IMG/VR virus record: IMGVR_UViG_2671181094_000004
DNA: 4,316 bases
Source: a virus
Taxonomy: Duplodnaviria; Heunggongvirae; Uroviricota; Caudoviricetes
Reading direction: 5' to 3' (one strand)
In this document: positions 1-4,316 of the stretch, in pieces
Numbering within the stretch: the first letter of the stretch is position 1
Layout: every line of letters starts with the position of its first letter
Notes under the pieces: generated by a model
Told to the model about the DNA's origin: nothing
What the model saw: the letters and a program-made list of their open reading frames with translations, nothing else
The model's database searches: none
Translations under genes and position numbers: made by a program

Positions 1-2
1 AC

Positions 3-269
3 TGTTCAGCAGATTATCAGGCGCAACTGAAGCGGCATAATCTGCGTGGAAGTATGAGCGCAAAAGGTTGCTGCTACGATAATGCCTGCGTGGAAAGCTT
101 CTTTCATTCGCTGAAAGTGGAATGTATCCATGGAGAACACTTTATCAGCCGGGAAATAATGCGGGCAACGGTGTTTAATTATATCGAATGTGATTACAAT
201 CGGTGGCGGCGGCACAGTTGGTGTGGCGGCCTCAGTCCGGAACAATTTGAAAACAAGAACCTCGCTTAG
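3..269 (+). CDS. insF: IS3 transposase OrfB (InsF-type DDE transposase), C-terminal fragment; 5' partial, starts before the window
   Basis: The frame is open from position 3 to the TAG at 267-269. The translation [47 protein letters not shown]...[16 protein letters not shown] matches my memory of the IS3 OrfB C-terminus, including the conserved E of the DDE triad in CVESFF. The listed ORF 54-269 is only the part after an internal Met. Confidence 0.85.
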
Positions 270-299
270 GCCTGTGTCCATATTACGTGGGTAGGATCA
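270..299 (+). repeat. IS3 right terminal inverted repeat
   Basis: The terminal ~30 bp end in ...gggtaggatca. The reverse complement TGATCCTACCCACGTAATATGGACACAGGCC has the IS3-family TG...CA terminus. The exact IR length was not measured against the left end, which is not in the window. Confidence 0.7.
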
Positions 300-455
300 C
301 ATACCGTCATGAGCGACATGCTTATATTCCCTTCCTTCCATAAACGATTTTTCCCGGGCCTTTTTTAACGTACCTTTTTTTATTCCTTTCAGCGCAATTA
401 ACTGCTCTTCGGATACCCATTTGCCGGGAGAGACAATCATGATTACTTCGCTCAT
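297..455 (-). CDS. Excisionase-like small DNA-binding protein (Xis family candidate), C-terminally truncated by the IS3 insertion
   Basis: ATG at 455-453 to TGA at 299-297 gives 52 codons by manual translation: MSEVIMIVSPGKWVSEEQLIALKGIKKGTLKKAREKSFMEGREYKHVAHDGM. The W...TLKKARE...GREY pattern resembles lambdoid Xis proteins (lambda Xis has ...RRWVRE...DGREYLF). The stop codon is the last 3 nt of IS3, so the native C-terminus is missing. The RBS is weak. The ORF is absent from the supplied track, presumably below its length cutoff. Confidence 0.45.
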   Translation of the reverse strand: MSEVIMIVSPGKWVSEEQLIALKGIKKGTLKKAREKSFMEGREYKHVAHDGM

Positions 456-527
456 CGATTTCTTTATCTCTTACATCAGACGAGCGCCGGTTGCAGAATA
501 CCAGTCACAACCGGCGACAGTTGAACA

Positions 528-2999
528 TTAAGAATCAGCCTGACTCGGGATCAGTTTTTGCCAGATAACTGAAACGTATTTTGCCTGGTAACGGGCGTCA
601 TCAAGTGCATTATGGCGCTCACCTTCGAATGGAATAGCCGTTCTGGCATCGAAGTCTATGGCTTTCCCCAGCTCAACGATTGTGCGTACATCGCGATCGT
701 TGTAGTAACGCCACGGGCAGGGGATCCCCTGCCGTTCGTATGAACGGCGCAAAATCGTGTTGTCGAAGTTGGCTCCATTTCCCCAAACCTGAACAAAAAA
801 TTCACCGGAGTTTTCGTCGATAAATTCCCGCAATTGTAACAGTGCATCATCTAACGGGATTTCATCGGTCATAATGGCAGATTGCGCTTCGCGTGATTGC
901 TTAAGCCACCATTTAATGGTGTTCCGATCAATGACTCCGCCAGCAGTTTCCAGATCGATAGTCTTACTAAATTCCGGTCCCATATCTCCGGTTTGCGGAT
1001 CGAAAAATATTGCACCTATTGAGATGATCGGGGCATCAGGATTTTTTCCCATGGTTTCAAGGTCGATCATTAGATGGTCACACGTCCTGCTGGTGGATGT
1101 GATTTCGTGATGACCGTTCACCTTAATTGAGTGATCTGCCGTCTCGCCAGTTTCATTATCGCTATTGTGATGCTGATTGCCGCTAGTGTTCTCCTTGTGT
1201 GGATGTTCAGCGCCTTCCATTTCCTCCGGATCATCTTCCTGAACTTCAACCTGATATTCTTCATCGAATGTTTCTTGATATGTTGCGTCGCCCATCACCG
1301 CGCCACAATCAGGGCAGTTGCCGCCGCCGGTCTGACCGCAGGCGGTGCAGACTTTTTCCACTTCCTGTTGCGCCACTGGTTCAGGCTGTTTCGTTTCTGG
1401 CTCGTTTTGTAACGCATTTGTGCTGTTTTGTTCCGCTTTTTGGTAGTTCCGTTCCGATTCATGCTGGTTCTGGTTCACAGAATCGCGGGTCTGGATCCCC
1501 TTAACCCATTTCGGATCATTCGGGTCACTAATCCCTTCAACAAATTCACCACGTGATGCAGCAAGCAACTTATCGGCGTCAGGCTGGCTGATATTGGCTG
1601 CCTGCATAATTTTGTTTACTTCGTCAGCGGTAACTTTTATCGGCTCTGGTTGTTCTGAATCTTCAGCGGTATCTACATTTTGCGGTAAGCCCGTGTATGT
1701 GCCATTTTTTCGGGCAAAATATTCTTCTTTTGTGATTTCAGTGGCGCCAGCAGCCAGTGCCTTATCCAGACCAGAAAGTTTGTTTGCGCGACCGTATTTT
1801 TCTCCGTCCTTATCTGCGAAGAGGAAATAGAACGGCCCCTCACGCTCTACAGATGGTTCAGCTTCCGGCGCGGTTTCATTTTTTGGGATATCAGATACCT
1901 CAGTTTCCACTGCATCAGTTTGTGTTTCTGATGACTGGAGAACATCAACAGTGCCCAGGTCTGTTTCTTCATTCTCAAACACGCCCTTTGTCGTCAGGTA
2001 TTCGCAGATATATTTGTTCAGTGCTATGGGATCTTTGTGAATGTCGATCGGACGCTCACGGACAAGGCCAAAAATAGTCTGGCGGTCGTAGCGAAGGGCA
2101 TCAGGCTGTTTGCGCATTGATGCCGAGATACGCTTCCAGTCTTCGCGGTCGTTGTCGATAACTTCTTTTTTTGCCCAGCGATGGATGCTGCCGTCAATGT
2201 TTCCGGCATCCACATCACCAGGCCAGAGAGCGTAGGCCAGTTCGTCATCCAGTGTTTTCCATGTCTGCTTGTATTCGCGATGAATGGCAGCAATGACCGG
2301 GCTGATTTTTCCTGTTGAATTTTCAGTGTACTGTTGATTGGCTCTGGCGCGGGCGAGATCAACAACAGACGTGTATTTTCCGGTTTCCTTGCGTTCACCT
2401 TCGCGACGTTTTTTCCAGATGCGCATCTCTGCCTGAATTTCGGGCCATTTAGCACCAGGAATACATTTATGCTTAACCCACCCAATGGCGTGCAACTTAA
2501 GCTCCGGATACATGGCGTTAACTTCTGGCATTTTCATCAACGCTTCAACGATATGTCCGTCGAATGTTGCCATGTCTTCCTGCAACAATTCCTGTGCGCT
2601 AATAACCATATCAACGGTGATGTTTTCACATGTGTCGAACTTAACCATGACAGCGTTCTGTACTTCAGGGGCCAGCTTGTCAAAAGTGACGTTCATCGGA
2701 TCGGATTCAGTCTCAACCGGGACAAAAGAAGCAGACTCCTCATCCCAGCGGTTTTCCTGCATATATTCAGCATCCCATGAATCGAGGGCAGGGCGGGGTA
2801 TGCCAGGTTTATCCTCGCAGACAATAAATTTATAAGCGCAGTCCTGAGCAGCCGGATAATGTTCCAGGAACTGCCAGTGAAATTTTGCTCGAGCACGGCG
2901 TTCGTCGCCAGCTTCAATGGCTGTGGCTACAGCCACAGCGCCTTCTTCCCTTGTTGCCAGTTCGTCAGGAATAGCGGCGCAAATAAAGACTTTACTCAT
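528..2999 (-). CDS. Large multidomain prophage protein (823 aa): N-terminal domain of unknown function, central CxxC-x7-CxxC zinc ribbon within acidic low-complexity linkers, C-terminal DnaQ-like DEDDh 3'-5' exonuclease domain
   Basis: This is an uninterrupted 824-codon ORF with GAGG (3013-3010) 10 nt upstream of the ATG at 2999. The C-terminal residues ~641-815 (nt 555-1079) carry Exo I LMIDLETMG (D646, E648), Exo II VQVWGNGANFD (D746) and Exo III HNALDDARYQAKYV (H796, D800/D801), with DnaQ-like spacing. The zinc ribbon CTACGQTGGGNCPDCG is at residues 551-565 (nt 1305-1349). Linkers rich in E, D, Q, P and T span residues ~350-390, 440-550 and 570-635. Gene order places it in the early-left exonuclease slot. 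Confidence 0.85.
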   Translation of the reverse strand: MSKVFICAAIPDELATREEGAVAVATAIEAGDERRARAKFHWQFLEHYPAAQDCAYKFIVCEDKPGIPRPALDSWDAEYMQENRWDEESASFVPVETESDPMNVTFDKLAPEVQNAVMVKFDTCENITVDMVISAQELLQEDMATFDGHIVEALMKMPEVNAMYPELKLHAIGWVKHKCIPGAKWPEIQAEMRIWKKRREGERKETGKYTSVVDLARARANQQYTENSTGKISPVIAAIHREYKQTWKTLDDELAYALWPGDVDAGNIDGSIHRWAKKEVIDNDREDWKRISASMRKQPDALRYDRQTIFGLVRERPIDIHKDPIALNKYICEYLTTKGVFENEETDLGTVDVLQSSETQTDAVETEVSDIPKNETAPEAEPSVEREGPFYFLFADKDGEKYGRANKLSGLDKALAAGATEITKEEYFARKNGTYTGLPQNVDTAEDSEQPEPIKVTADEVNKIMQAANISQPDADKLLAASRGEFVEGISDPNDPKWVKGIQTRDSVNQNQHESERNYQKAEQNSTNALQNEPETKQPEPVAQQEVEKVCTACGQTGGGNCPDCGAVMGDATYQETFDEEYQVEVQEDDPEEMEGAEHPHKENTSGNQHHNSDNETGETADHSIKVNGHHEITSTSRTCDHLMIDLETMGKNPDAPIISIGAIFFDPQTGDMGPEFSKTIDLETAGGVIDRNTIKWWLKQSREAQSAIMTDEIPLDDALLQLREFIDENSGEFFVQVWGNGANFDNTILRRSYERQGIPCPWRYYNDRDVRTIVELGKAIDFDARTAIPFEGERHNALDDARYQAKYVSVIWQKLIPSQADS

Positions 3000-3092
3000 T
3001 TTGTTTTAACCTCATGACAGATTTAAGGATGAACAAATCCCTGCCATTGCTGGCATATAAGAATGAAACCGGATATTTATTACGGAACTGTT

Positions 3093-3284
3093 TTAAAGAC
3101 CTGCCGGGATTTCGATATTATCCTGGTGAATAACTTTATCGACCGGGTAACAGTTACCGGGAATTTTCTGTTCGGTTGCTGCAGTCATACACTCCTGCAT
3201 TGTCCTGTGAACACTGACTGCAATATCAACTGGCTCTCCGGAAACAAGAAAAACTGTCAGAACAAGCGCAAATGCTGAATTCAT
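3093..3284 (-). CDS. Small protein (63 aa) with an N-terminal hydrophobic segment (possible signal peptide or membrane anchor) and two Cys in the C-terminal half; function unknown
   Basis: The ATG at 3284-3282 overlaps the upstream gene's TGA (3283-3281) as ATGA, and AAGGA lies ~10 nt upstream. The protein is MNSAFALVLTVFLVSGEPVDIAVSVHRTMQECMTAATEQKIPGNCYPVDKVIHQDNIEIPAGL. The longer track ORF (81 aa from 3338) has no better start context. Confidence 0.6.
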   Translation of the reverse strand: MNSAFALVLTVFLVSGEPVDIAVSVHRTMQECMTAATEQKIPGNCYPVDKVIHQDNIEIPAGL

Positions 3285-3469
3285 TGTGCACATCCTTTTG
3301 GCATCAGACGTAAACGAGCCAGCATTGAAACAATGCATATTTTATTTAATAGCTCCCGTTCTTGTTTTCTCTTGTTAATGGCATCTTCAGTAAATACAGG
3401 GTTACTGATAGTGACACCAATTTCAAAACAACCTTCAGACGTATTAACGTTTGGTAATAACGTTTTCAT
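3281..3469 (-). CDS. Small early-region protein (62 aa), RacC-like by position immediately upstream of the exonuclease gene; identity not verified
   Basis: The ATG at 3469-3467 has a strong SD (GAGGA) 8 nt upstream. The protein is MKTLLPNVNTSEGCFEIGVTISNPVFTEDAINKRKQERELLNKICIVSMLARLRLMPKGCAQ. The 97-aa track ORF starts at a GTG (3574) with no SD, so the ATG start is preferred. Its stop overlaps the next gene's start (ATGA), indicating translational coupling. Confidence 0.65.
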   Translation of the reverse strand: MKTLLPNVNTSEGCFEIGVTISNPVFTEDAINKRKQERELLNKICIVSMLARLRLMPKGCAQ

Positions 3470-3830
3470 TATCGCGTCCTCAACAATGAATTTTGTGATG
3501 CAGTGCCTGGTGCCTCCAGGTGACGTTAACCAGTTAACAATTAACGCCGGATACAGAGAATCCACCCATAACACTGTTTTTGGTTTTAACTGTTCCGCGT
3601 GCGCTTAGCCGCATTCACCGCATCACAAAATTCACTTTAAAAACGGCGGCAGAGCAGTCACGGAGTAAAACTGATACCGCCAAACGTCACCAGAAAATTG
3701 ATAACAGAGGGCGTTGCAGCGGGGTTGTCACTTAAGCGTATGGTCAACCTGACAACTCGGTGTCCTCAACGGGGAAGGAATAACCCCGCCATACTTACCG
3801 CCGCGCCATTTCGCGGGTTGCCACAACCGG

Positions 3831-3892
3831 AAGCGCACGGTCGAATTAAATTTAACGACACCGTACAGTGAGACGAACTTCGCCGTGCGCTT
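3831..3892. repeat. Perfect 10-bp inverted repeat (aagcgcacgg / ccgtgcgctt) flanking a 42-bp spacer that contains a 10-bp AT palindrome (ttaaatttaa, 3846-3855)
   Basis: Read directly: 3831-3840 aagcgcacgg and its exact reverse complement at 3883-3892. It lies in the ORF-free divergent intergenic region, ~80 bp upstream of the plus-strand ATG at 3972. Confidence 0.6.
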
Positions 3893-3971
3893 TCGTGTTG
3901 TGTGCCTGCTTTTAACCACGTCAGGCGAGGTGGTATCCTTCTTATTCCGAATAACCAAGAAGGAAATCTAT

Positions 3972-4040
3972 ATGACTAAAGAAGAATTTGTCTCTTATAT
4001 TTTTGATAAAACGGTTGAGGTAATGACTCCAACTTATTGA
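3972..4040 (+). pseudogene. 5' remnant of a divergently transcribed gene, disrupted by IS1 after codon 16; the reading frame runs into IS1 and stops at 4038-4040
   Basis: AGGA at 3961-3964 lies 7 nt upstream of the ATG at 3972. The native codons give MTKEEFVSYIFDKTVE; IS1 sequence begins at 4019, and the remaining codons (VMTPTY, then stop) are IS1-derived. The identity of the original gene cannot be determined from 16 residues. Confidence 0.55.
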
Positions 4041-4316
4041 TAGTGTTTTATGTTCAGATAATGCCCGATGACTTTGTCATGCAGCTCCACCGATTTTGAG
4101 AACGACAGCGACTTCCGTCCCAGCCGTGCCAGGTGCTGCCTCAGATTCAGGTTATGCCGCTCAATTCGCTGCGTATATCGCTTGCTGATTACGTGCAGCT
4201 TTCCCTTCAGGCGGGATTCATACAGCGGCCAGCCATCCGTCATCCATATCACCACGTCAAAGGCCGACAGCAGGCTCAGAAGACGCTCCAGTGTGGCCAG
4301 AGTGCGTTCACCGAAG
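4019..4316 (-). mobile_element. IS1 insertion sequence (partial; continues beyond the window end), InsB-proximal end facing the prophage
   Basis: ggtaatgactccaacttattgatagtg from 4019 matches the IS1 terminal inverted repeat (GGTAATGACTCCAACTTATTGAT). The downstream sequence encodes the InsB C-terminus on the minus strand. The 9 bp adjacent outside are aacggttga (4010-4018); the target-site duplication cannot be verified. Confidence 0.9.
4034..4315 (-). CDS. insB: IS1 transposase InsB, C-terminal fragment; 5' partial, starts beyond the window end
   Basis: The frame is open from the window end to the TAA at 4036-4034. The translation ...[75 protein letters not shown] matches my memory of the IS1 InsB C-terminus. 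Residues encoded by 4256-4315 differ at a few positions from the IS1 copy I remember, so this is an IS1 variant. Confidence 0.85.

Follow-up and report, generated by a model that had tools for sequence, protein, structure and literature searches.

The early-left genes of the Rac prophage of Escherichia coli are arranged int, xis, ydaC, ralR, recT, recE, racC, and those of phage lambda int, xis, ea genes, exo, bet, gam, kil. Against these two orders, both correctly given, an earlier note (the original prediction) set a 4,316-nucleotide stretch of DNA from the IMG/VR virus record IMGVR_UViG_2671181094_000004 (Caudoviricetes), here called the window, in which a large exonuclease gene directly neighbors an xis-like gene and no annealase gene (recT/bet) accompanies it. 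Our analysis identifies window positions 297-3469 as the promoter-distal end of a PL-type dicBF early-left operon (dicF-dicB-ydfD-ydfE-xis) of a Qin-family lambdoid prophage. The missing annealase is native to this lineage, including a complete phage genome, and is not a local loss.

Several described systems resemble this locus. In the Qin prophage of E. coli K-12 the order is dicA-ydfA-ydfB-ydfC-dicF-dicB-ydfD-ydfE-intQ', where ydfE is a pseudogene cut by the insertion sequence (IS) IS2E. The dicBF transcript begins upstream of ydfA and spans ydfABC, dicF, dicB and ydfDE (bioRxiv 10.1101/2023.04.14.536235). In RecE of the Rac prophage the nuclease domain comprises residues 564-866, and a review describes the N-terminal part as “of unknown function” (PMC11611040). 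Phages without any Rec module make up 22% of lambdoid phages according to a 2025 survey, which also mentions DnaQ-type nucleases occurring sporadically near int in lambdoid phages (PMC12315714).

Results

The exonuclease gene is an intact ydfE

In megablast searches against complete E. coli genomes the segment falls in a Qin-type prophage adjoining rspB. Relatives with an intact left arm read rspB / int - xis (83 amino acids, aa) - exonuclease (823-825 aa) - ydfD - dicB - ... - ydfA - dicA / dicC - ydaT, so that the ydfE-type gene is the last early-left gene ahead of xis. Residues 1-256 of the window exonuclease are 100% identical to the product of the K-12 pseudogene ydfE, and the window gene is therefore an intact ydfE of 823 aa, whereas the K-12 copy is interrupted by IS2E after codon 256. 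DicF, dicB, ydfD and ydfE are present, in order and on one strand, as judged from Rfam, Pfam and the ydfE identity, and genes, order and chromosomal family are those of the K-12 Qin operon. Two further differences from K-12 concern the borders: xis is cut by an IS3-family element, and the upstream side with ydfABC and the dicA/dicC control region has been removed by IS1, which occupies the window from 4019 onwards. The window copy is thus an operon fragment stranded between IS3 and IS1.

The layout given in the original prediction (an xis-like gene at 297-455, a 72-bp gap, the exonuclease at 528-2999 and then two small genes) proved accurate, with all genes on the minus strand. The only intergenic gaps, 72 bp between xis' and the exonuclease (456-527) and 93 bp between the exonuclease and ydfD, indeed leave no room for an annealase gene between 300 and 3469. 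This layout is no anomaly but the standard end of a dicBF operon.

Of 5426 complete E. coli genomes, 3537 (65%) contain at least 80% of the 2472-nt gene, in up to 10 places per genome, and copies with 99-100% identity occur in E. ruysiae, in IMG/VR prophages and in phage HannyBb. The PHROG family phrog_2082 matches the exonuclease end to end (1-822 of 823), and among homologs two newly established Pfam families, PF27430 (YdfE_N) and PF27432 (YdfE_C), are matched in addition to PF16473. The annealase-free layout is therefore very common as well as native and has already been catalogued (PHROG 2082; Pfam YdfE_N/YdfE_C).

No annealase accompanies the DEDDh form

A six-frame Pfam scan of window positions 250-3620 (E<=1) found no RecT, Bet, Erf, Rad52 or Sak family, as had been expected; it returned only Rv2179c-like, RNase_T (weak), DUF1482, DUF1233 and DicB. 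A counterpart of the exonuclease gene, 99.4% identical, is found in the complete genome of Escherichia phage HannyBb, which spans 45,272 bp and encodes terminase, head, tail and lysis functions; the order there is repressor - small open reading frames (ORFs) - dicB - ydfD - exonuclease - xis - int. tblastn of its whole genome with RecT, Bet, Erf, Sak4, a Rad52-like annealase, Gam, Abc2 and lambda Exo gave nothing (all E>0.02), while each reference protein recovers its own source locus.

For a broader census, 335 related loci were collected with four different queries from one-genome-per-species contigs and IMG/VR and were sorted into classes by tblastn. Not one of the 226 loci with a DEDDh nuclease domain carries an annealase (RecT, Bet, Erf, Sak4, Rad52-like); 211 of them have at least 1 kb of downstream DNA. 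In sharp contrast, recT lies downstream in 103 of 104 loci with a PD-(D/E)XK nuclease domain, and in the single remaining locus (L178) the contig ends 37 nt past the nuclease match. Where the distance was measured, recT begins within ~70 nt of the nuclease match (79 of 80 PD-(D/E)XK loci). In five divergent DEDDh loci the integrase is the next large ORF downstream, and a helix-turn-helix repressor the upstream one. Because neither the 226 DEDDh loci nor the complete phage HannyBb carry an annealase, its absence is best read as native. The question raised earlier, namely whether an annealase was lost here or was never present, can thus be answered with “never present”, and the intact Qin-type prophages next to rspB agree.

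The exonuclease also falls outside the SynExo type of recombinase. Neither in the window nor at the 226 loci nor in HannyBb is there an adjacent annealase gene (RecT, Bet, Erf, Rad52-like, Sak4), and the catalytic domain is DEDDh/DnaQ-like, a 3'-5' exonuclease family, where a SynExo nuclease would be a 5'-3' double-stranded DNA exonuclease making 3' overhangs. Its polarity is predicted from the family; the original prediction, too, had not expected a DEDDh enzyme to generate the 3' overhangs used by annealases. The suggestion made there, that this may be a gene outside any two-component recombinase, gains support from both the negative annealase search and the synteny.

The Chi octamer (GCTGGTGG) occurs inside the exonuclease gene at window position 1089 (+). 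In HannyBb (locus L101) it is found on the top strand at 26330, 35321, 35447, 35505 and 41639 and on the bottom strand at 35911 and 35963, i.e. 7 sites where base composition would predict ~1.3. Chi is said to be nearly absent from lambda-type phages equipped with Rec modules; the HannyBb count agrees no more than modestly with a “no Rec module, Chi-bearing” class.

The protein is a mosaic of a RecE-like scaffold and a DEDDh nuclease

BLASTP aligns residues 262-625 of the exonuclease with Rac RecE 278-591 (39% identity over 364 aa, E = 6e-61). The identity is near-complete over aa 470-625, which comprise the DPNDPKW motif, the zinc ribbon and an acidic His-rich linker, and the similarity ends at RecE 591, where the nuclease domain of RecE starts. 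This central region is shared at the DNA level as well, with 83-90% identity (blastn against Rac recE: gene nt 1425-1548 at 90%, nt 1592-1867 at 83%). Also, the operon position between kil-type genes and xis is the same as that of Rac recE/recT. The differences are nevertheless substantial. The C-terminus has no Pfam DUF3799/PDDEXK match and is a Rv2179c-like DEDDh domain (3'-5'), unlike the PD-(D/E)XK domain of RecE (5'-3'); the first 260 aa match YdfE_N instead of Pfam Exonuc_VIII; and no recT, ralR or rcbA follows downstream. Against the NCBIfam RecE equivalog NF007259 the protein scores 279 bits, compared with a cut-off of 1269, and covers model positions 271-602 only, which is no full-length match.

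Two relatives illustrate how the parts have been exchanged. The exonuclease of phage vB_EcoS-813R8 consists of RecE 50-591 (59% identity) plus a DEDDh domain and is followed by xis and int without recT; relatives of this type share the entire N-terminal 591 residues of RecE. Conversely, the 987-aa product of a gene on a contig from a metagenome-assembled genome (L015) shows 87% identity to the window protein across aa 1-499 and then continues into a DUF3799 PD-(D/E)XK domain. Downstream of this nuclease lies a gene of the RecT family (Pfam E = 2.7e-44), and beyond it come small ORFs, xis (DUF1233) and an integrase gene. Nucleotides 1-1494 of the window gene match the L015 gene at 89.6%, after which the match ends abruptly, and nt 1868-2472 match neither the L015 gene nor Rac recE.

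Within the census the two N-terminal types assort freely with either nuclease: YdfE_N is joined to DEDDh at 167 loci and to PD-(D/E)XK at 2, RecE_N to DEDDh at 59 and to PD-(D/E)XK at 99. Since recT is tied to the PD-(D/E)XK domain, nuclease domain and recT are exchanged together as a single cassette, to which DEDDh is the alternative. This is consistent with RecE being known to act specifically with RecT as its partner. By its sequence the window gene is related to RecE by descent, and the absent part is a swapped “nuclease domain + recT” cassette.

The catalytic domain is closest to DexA-type DNA exonucleases

Residues 642-813 match Pfam PF16473 (Rv2179c-like) over profile positions 2-177 of 177 with 225.7 bits (cut-off 27, E = 4e-67). 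All five catalytic residues of the DEDDh pattern (DxE, D, H-x4-D) are present: in an L-INS-i alignment D646, E648, D746, H796 and D801 correspond to D7, E9, D119, H186 and D191 of T4 DexA. By sequence, only two solved relatives came up at E<=0.01, both of them 227-aa chains labelled “exodeoxyribonuclease”: 8kel (E = 1e-6) and 8ken. These correspond to DexA and its S87A/D90A mutant; DexA and its E. coli homolog EcD have been shown experimentally to be 3'-5' DNA exonucleases (PMC12153337).

The same domain also exists as a short stand-alone protein of ~180 aa, in two kinds of setting. In mEpX2 and epsilon34 the short DEDDh protein is encoded within a Rec module (Rad52-like annealase - SSB - DEDDh - Abc2), and in PhiR47_1 it stands by itself towards the left end of an early-left operon of yfdP/yfdQ type. 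Both settings agree with the 2025 survey of Rec modules in lambdoid phages (PMC12315714). The window protein has its catalytic domain in common with these short DnaQ-like forms (epsilon34 gp34, mEpX2_032, PhiR47_1), with 53-58% identity to the enterobacterial ones, and the DexA catalytic residues are conserved in it. However, the short forms, at about 180-227 aa, lack the RecE/YdfE scaffold. Because some of them adjoin Rad52-like annealases in Rec modules, the DEDDh type alone does not rule out a role in recombination.

Scaffold family and alternative C-termini

Searching aa 1-640 against 1.84 billion representative proteins gave just 246 matches at E<=1e-3, with Enterobacteriaceae as the named sources; the scaffold family is therefore narrow. 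Its C-terminal partners are the DEDDh domain, the DUF3799 PD-(D/E)XK domain, an uncharacterised domain of ~290 aa (phrog_2489) and a further uncharacterised domain (phrog_26058). The latter forms a fourth C-terminal variant in proteins P0126, P0133, P0151, P0258 and P0267, which ends ...QQLTIAALHGLCANPA.... In protein P0203 (703 aa) RecE 1-526 is broken within the zinc ribbon and fused in frame to the C-terminal part of RecT, either as a natural recE-recT deletion fusion or as an assembly artefact.

Two short elements of the scaffold are kept in nearly all relatives, whatever their C-terminus. One is the GPFY...GRANK mini-domain (1704-1838 (-), aa 388-432), in which G388, P389, F390, Y391, G403, R404, A405, N406 and K407 are invariant across 43 homologs. 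The other is the GISDPNDPKW motif (1503-1523 (-), aa 492-498), a recurrent mosaic breakpoint directly past which L015 diverges.

Nuclease-less scaffold relatives (P0129 family, phrog_2489) are probably the “RecE-2” of PMC12315714, whose description they match. A Rad52-like annealase had been considered for their ~290-aa C-terminal domain on account of a KKSLTDAxKKALSxLGFSADV motif and a helix / long beta-sheet / helix core in the AlphaFold2 (AF2) model. This identity is not supported: the domain has no Pfam match, no PDB match by profile and no HMM/hhalign signal to RecT, Bet, Erf, Sak4 or a Rad52-like protein, and Foldseek against PDB gave nothing below E = 0.1.

Discussion

The explanation that best accounts for the data as a whole, and which we hold with moderate confidence, combines the distal end of a dicBF operon, a RecE-scaffold/DEDDh mosaic, a native absence of annealase, and a stand-alone 3'-5' DNA exonuclease. 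We regard its structural and evolutionary part as very well founded; its functional part, which is read from homology and gene position, we put forward tentatively, at slightly less than even chances. Upon derepression of the prophage, the early-left transcript would give rise to the exonuclease along with DicF, DicB and YdfD. With its five catalytic residues intact and T4 DexA, a DNA exonuclease, as its nearest relative, the protein may act as a stand-alone 3'-5' DNA exonuclease that trims 3' single-stranded ends, tails or flaps on replicating phage DNA or on broken DNA. Annealing and strand exchange would be left to host RecA/RecBCD, as has been proposed for lambdoid phages without a Rec module. 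The partner or DNA structure to which the RecE-like scaffold directs the nuclease is probably the one targeted in RecE. In the lineage of the exonuclease, searches of the HannyBb genome for annealases, Gam and Abc2 and of the 226 DEDDh loci for annealases found no such partner.

Close counterparts in this respect are the “No Rec module” lambdoids (LLS group; Genome Res 2025, PMC12315714). They likewise have no annealase, Gam or Abc2, and a DnaQ-type nuclease is encoded very near int. LLS itself differs in having a yfdP/yfdQ-type early-left region without such a nuclease. The fusion of a RecE scaffold to a DEDDh domain and its strict anti-correlation with recT are not described in the sections of the survey that were consulted.

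A number of points weigh against our explanation. The substrate (DNA or RNA) and the role of the protein we infer only from homology and gene position, and the Pfam family carries the name of a mycobacterial exoribonuclease. 3'-5' exonucleases usually inhibit homologous recombination, as stated in PMC12315714, and have no established positive role in lambdoid recombination. An E. coli short-form homolog acts as an anti-T4 nuclease, which hints at a different role (PMC12153337). Full-text searches gave no paper combining “ydfE”, “dicB” and “exonuclease”, and only marginal mentions of ydfE. The census loci behind the count of none in 226 are closely related prophages and not independent events, and annealases were sought with six reference proteins and spot Pfam checks, which a wholly novel family would escape. 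Finally, the window gene may not be expressed, because IS1 cuts the operon off from its promoter; the stranded copy is probably silent with respect to dicBp.

Among the rival explanations, the strongest one sees the exonuclease as an HREX-type exclusion or defence nuclease, directed at the DNA of competing phages (e.g. T-even phages with modified cytosines) rather than serving the phage's own recombination. The model for such a role is EcD, which degrades T4 DNA containing 5-hydroxymethylcytosine (5hmC) and not unmodified double-stranded DNA, and which protects from T4 (Kang et al., NAR 2025, PMC12153337). Like EcD, the window domain is of the DexA/Rv2179c family, with its catalytic residues complete, the neighboring dicB is credited with protection against phage infection in the title of PMC6832061, and the gene lies at the int-proximal end of the prophage, where accessory genes are often found. 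The residues behind HREX specificity give a mixed picture. W152 of DexA, which is required for 5hmC recognition, is kept as Trp in the short forms but is Tyr in the window protein; the equivalent of DexA D90 is retained as Asp, whereas EcD lacks this tetramer residue; and the equivalent of D169 cannot be aligned reliably, falling in a loop that two alignments place differently. Judging from its numbering (A78 for DexA D90), EcD appears to be a short stand-alone protein without a RecE-like scaffold. Also, a scan for promoter and terminator consensus sequences gave no more matches than expected from shuffled sequence, and none in the interval from exonuclease to xis. Since the operon is DicA-repressed and the gene has no promoter-like site of its own, no expression is to be expected in a quiet lysogen. 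We rate an exclusion role as unlikely.

Even less probable is an exoribonuclease (of the Rv2179c, RNase T or oligoribonuclease-like kind) acting on the dicBF transcript, on host RNAs or on small nucleotides. The name of the best Pfam family, “3'-5' exoribonuclease Rv2179c-like”, the weak RNase_T match, the RefSeq label “3'-5' exoribonuclease” on some copies and the small RNA (sRNA) excised from this very transcript would all be in line with it, but DicF processing is credited to RNase E and RNase III (bioRxiv 10.1101/2023.04.14.536235), the solved relatives at E<=0.01 are solely DexA-type exodeoxyribonucleases, close short-form homologs are encoded between SSB and Abc2 of DNA recombination modules, and on the RecE scaffold the domain stands in for a DNA exonuclease. 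That the protein remains one component of a two-part recombinase, with its annealase supplied in trans (e.g. Rac RecT) or hidden in the 640-aa N-terminal region, is in our view highly improbable. With up to 10 matching places per E. coli genome, related prophages can coexist, the scaffold family is fused to several distinct C-terminal domains, and the N-terminal part of RecE boosts linear-linear recombination (PMC11611040). Yet a 3'-5' polarity would leave 5' overhangs, which are no substrate for RecT/Bet, recT strictly tracks the PD-(D/E)XK domain and never DEDDh, the HannyBb genome contains no annealase match at all, and aa 1-520 show no annealase fold or family in Pfam and PDB sequence searches and in the AF2 model (for the structure prediction the query of the alignment was trimmed to aa 1-520). 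A deletion of a formerly present annealase in this strain, e.g. through IS3 or IS1 activity, would at first sight suit the two flanking elements, which did truncate xis and cut the operon. It is refuted by the synteny data and we give it practically no weight: both elements lie outside the exonuclease-xis and exonuclease-ydfD junctions, the 72-bp spacer between exonuclease and xis is the same in intact relatives and in the complete phage, and a related locus with this exonuclease beside a recT/bet-like gene that has merely been deleted here, which the original prediction had named as the refuting case, was not found among the 226 DEDDh loci or elsewhere in the comparison.

A more far-reaching interpretation, which we consider doubtful, would make the RecE/YdfE scaffold a modular delivery platform of enterobacterial lambdoid phages, joined by turns to a PD-(D/E)XK nuclease (always with RecT), to a DEDDh nuclease (never with an annealase) or to one of the two uncharacterised C-terminal domains. 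The DEDDh form would then be a distinct annealase-independent system, which either blunts ends and so channels phage DNA into host RecBCD/RecA or excludes other phages as an HREX-like nuclease. If true, the DEDDh form would functionally replace RecET in the prophages of about two thirds of E. coli genomes.

Taken by itself, the finding is an ordinary one: the window shows the normal distal end of a Qin-type dicBF operon, and annealase-less lambdoid prophages are common and documented (PMC12315714). The gene is among the most widespread E. coli prophage genes, yet its database labels vary between “exodeoxyribonuclease VIII”, “exonuclease” and “3'-5' exoribonuclease”. The strict co-variation of recT with nuclease type is a useful but modest comparative observation. 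It shows that the label “exonuclease VIII” is wrong for the DEDDh forms, and it offers a natural domain-swap series for probing the role of the RecE N-terminal region.

Annotation of the window

Table 1. Features annotated in the 4,316-nt window, in order of position.
Feature	Position	Strand	Evidence and remarks
IS3-family right end	1..299	+	3' end of transposase ORF at 54-269; Pfam rve_2/rve_3 on 54-269
xis' (truncated excisionase)	297..455	-	52 aa; Pfam DUF1233 positions 1-47 of 70, E 1.8e-19
Intact ydfE, 823-aa exonuclease	528..2999	-	RecE scaffold + DEDDh 3'-5' exonuclease domain
DEDDh exonuclease domain, aa 642-813	561..1076	-	PF16473; occupies the place of the PD-(D/E)XK nuclease of RecE
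Segment shared with Rac RecE, aa 475-622	1134..1577	-	At DNA and protein level; DPNDPKW (aa 492), CxxC...CxxC
Zinc ribbon CxxC...CxxC, C551-C565	1305..1349	-	Inside the RecE-shared segment
Beta-hairpin/helix module, aa 388-432	1704..1838	-	Invariant GPFY...GRANK; AF2 pLDDT ~86
YdfE_C helical scaffold domain (PF27432), aa 245-340	1980..2267	-	Weakly shared with RecE 278-360
YdfE_N scaffold domain (PF27430), aa 1-205	2385..2999	-	
ydfD (lysis protein YdfD)	3093..3284 (K-12 start)	-	DUF1482, E 4e-26; K-12 and RefSeq annotation
dicB (cell-division inhibitor)	3281..3469	-	Pfam DicB, E 1e-39; K-12 annotation
DicF sRNA	3644..3695	-	Rfam RF00039, full length, 72.5 bits (gathering score 48), E 3e-15
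IS1 end (3' part of insB)	4019..4316	-	Pfam DDE_Tnp_IS1; IS1 terminus read

The coordinates of all features are given in Table 1. The terminal repeat of the IS3-family element reads ...GGTAGGATCA, with 299 as its last base, and E. coli matches to the window either start at 300 or include the IS3. The element cuts xis short, donates the stop codon of xis' and eliminates int. In relatives the excisionase has 83 aa; L001 and L002 contain it as a full-length 252-nt gene annotated “excisionase family protein”.

On the other side of the exonuclease, the Pfam DUF1482 frame of ydfD spans 3093-3338 (minus strand). The dicB frame is open further upstream to 3574 (3281-3574 (-), 97 codons from a GTG; 8426-8719 in L003), and start calls differ: the annotators of HannyBb chose the long form (294 nt), K-12 and RefSeq 62 codons. 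DicF sits just upstream of dicB and marks the operon as dicBF. A sub-threshold Rfam match to STnc100, a gammaproteobacterial sRNA, at 3437-3646 (-) (34.5 bits compared with a gathering score of 47, E = 5.6e-5) covers the spacer between dicF and dicB as well as the 5' part added in the long dicB ORF. The IS1 end divides dicF-dicB-ydfD-ydfE from ydfABC and the dicA/dicC promoter region, where relatives run on into ydfC/ydfB/ydfA/dicA. It also truncates a small ORF on the opposite strand (3885-4040 (+), MTKEEFVSYIFDKTVE...), which is homologous to L001 13759-13959.

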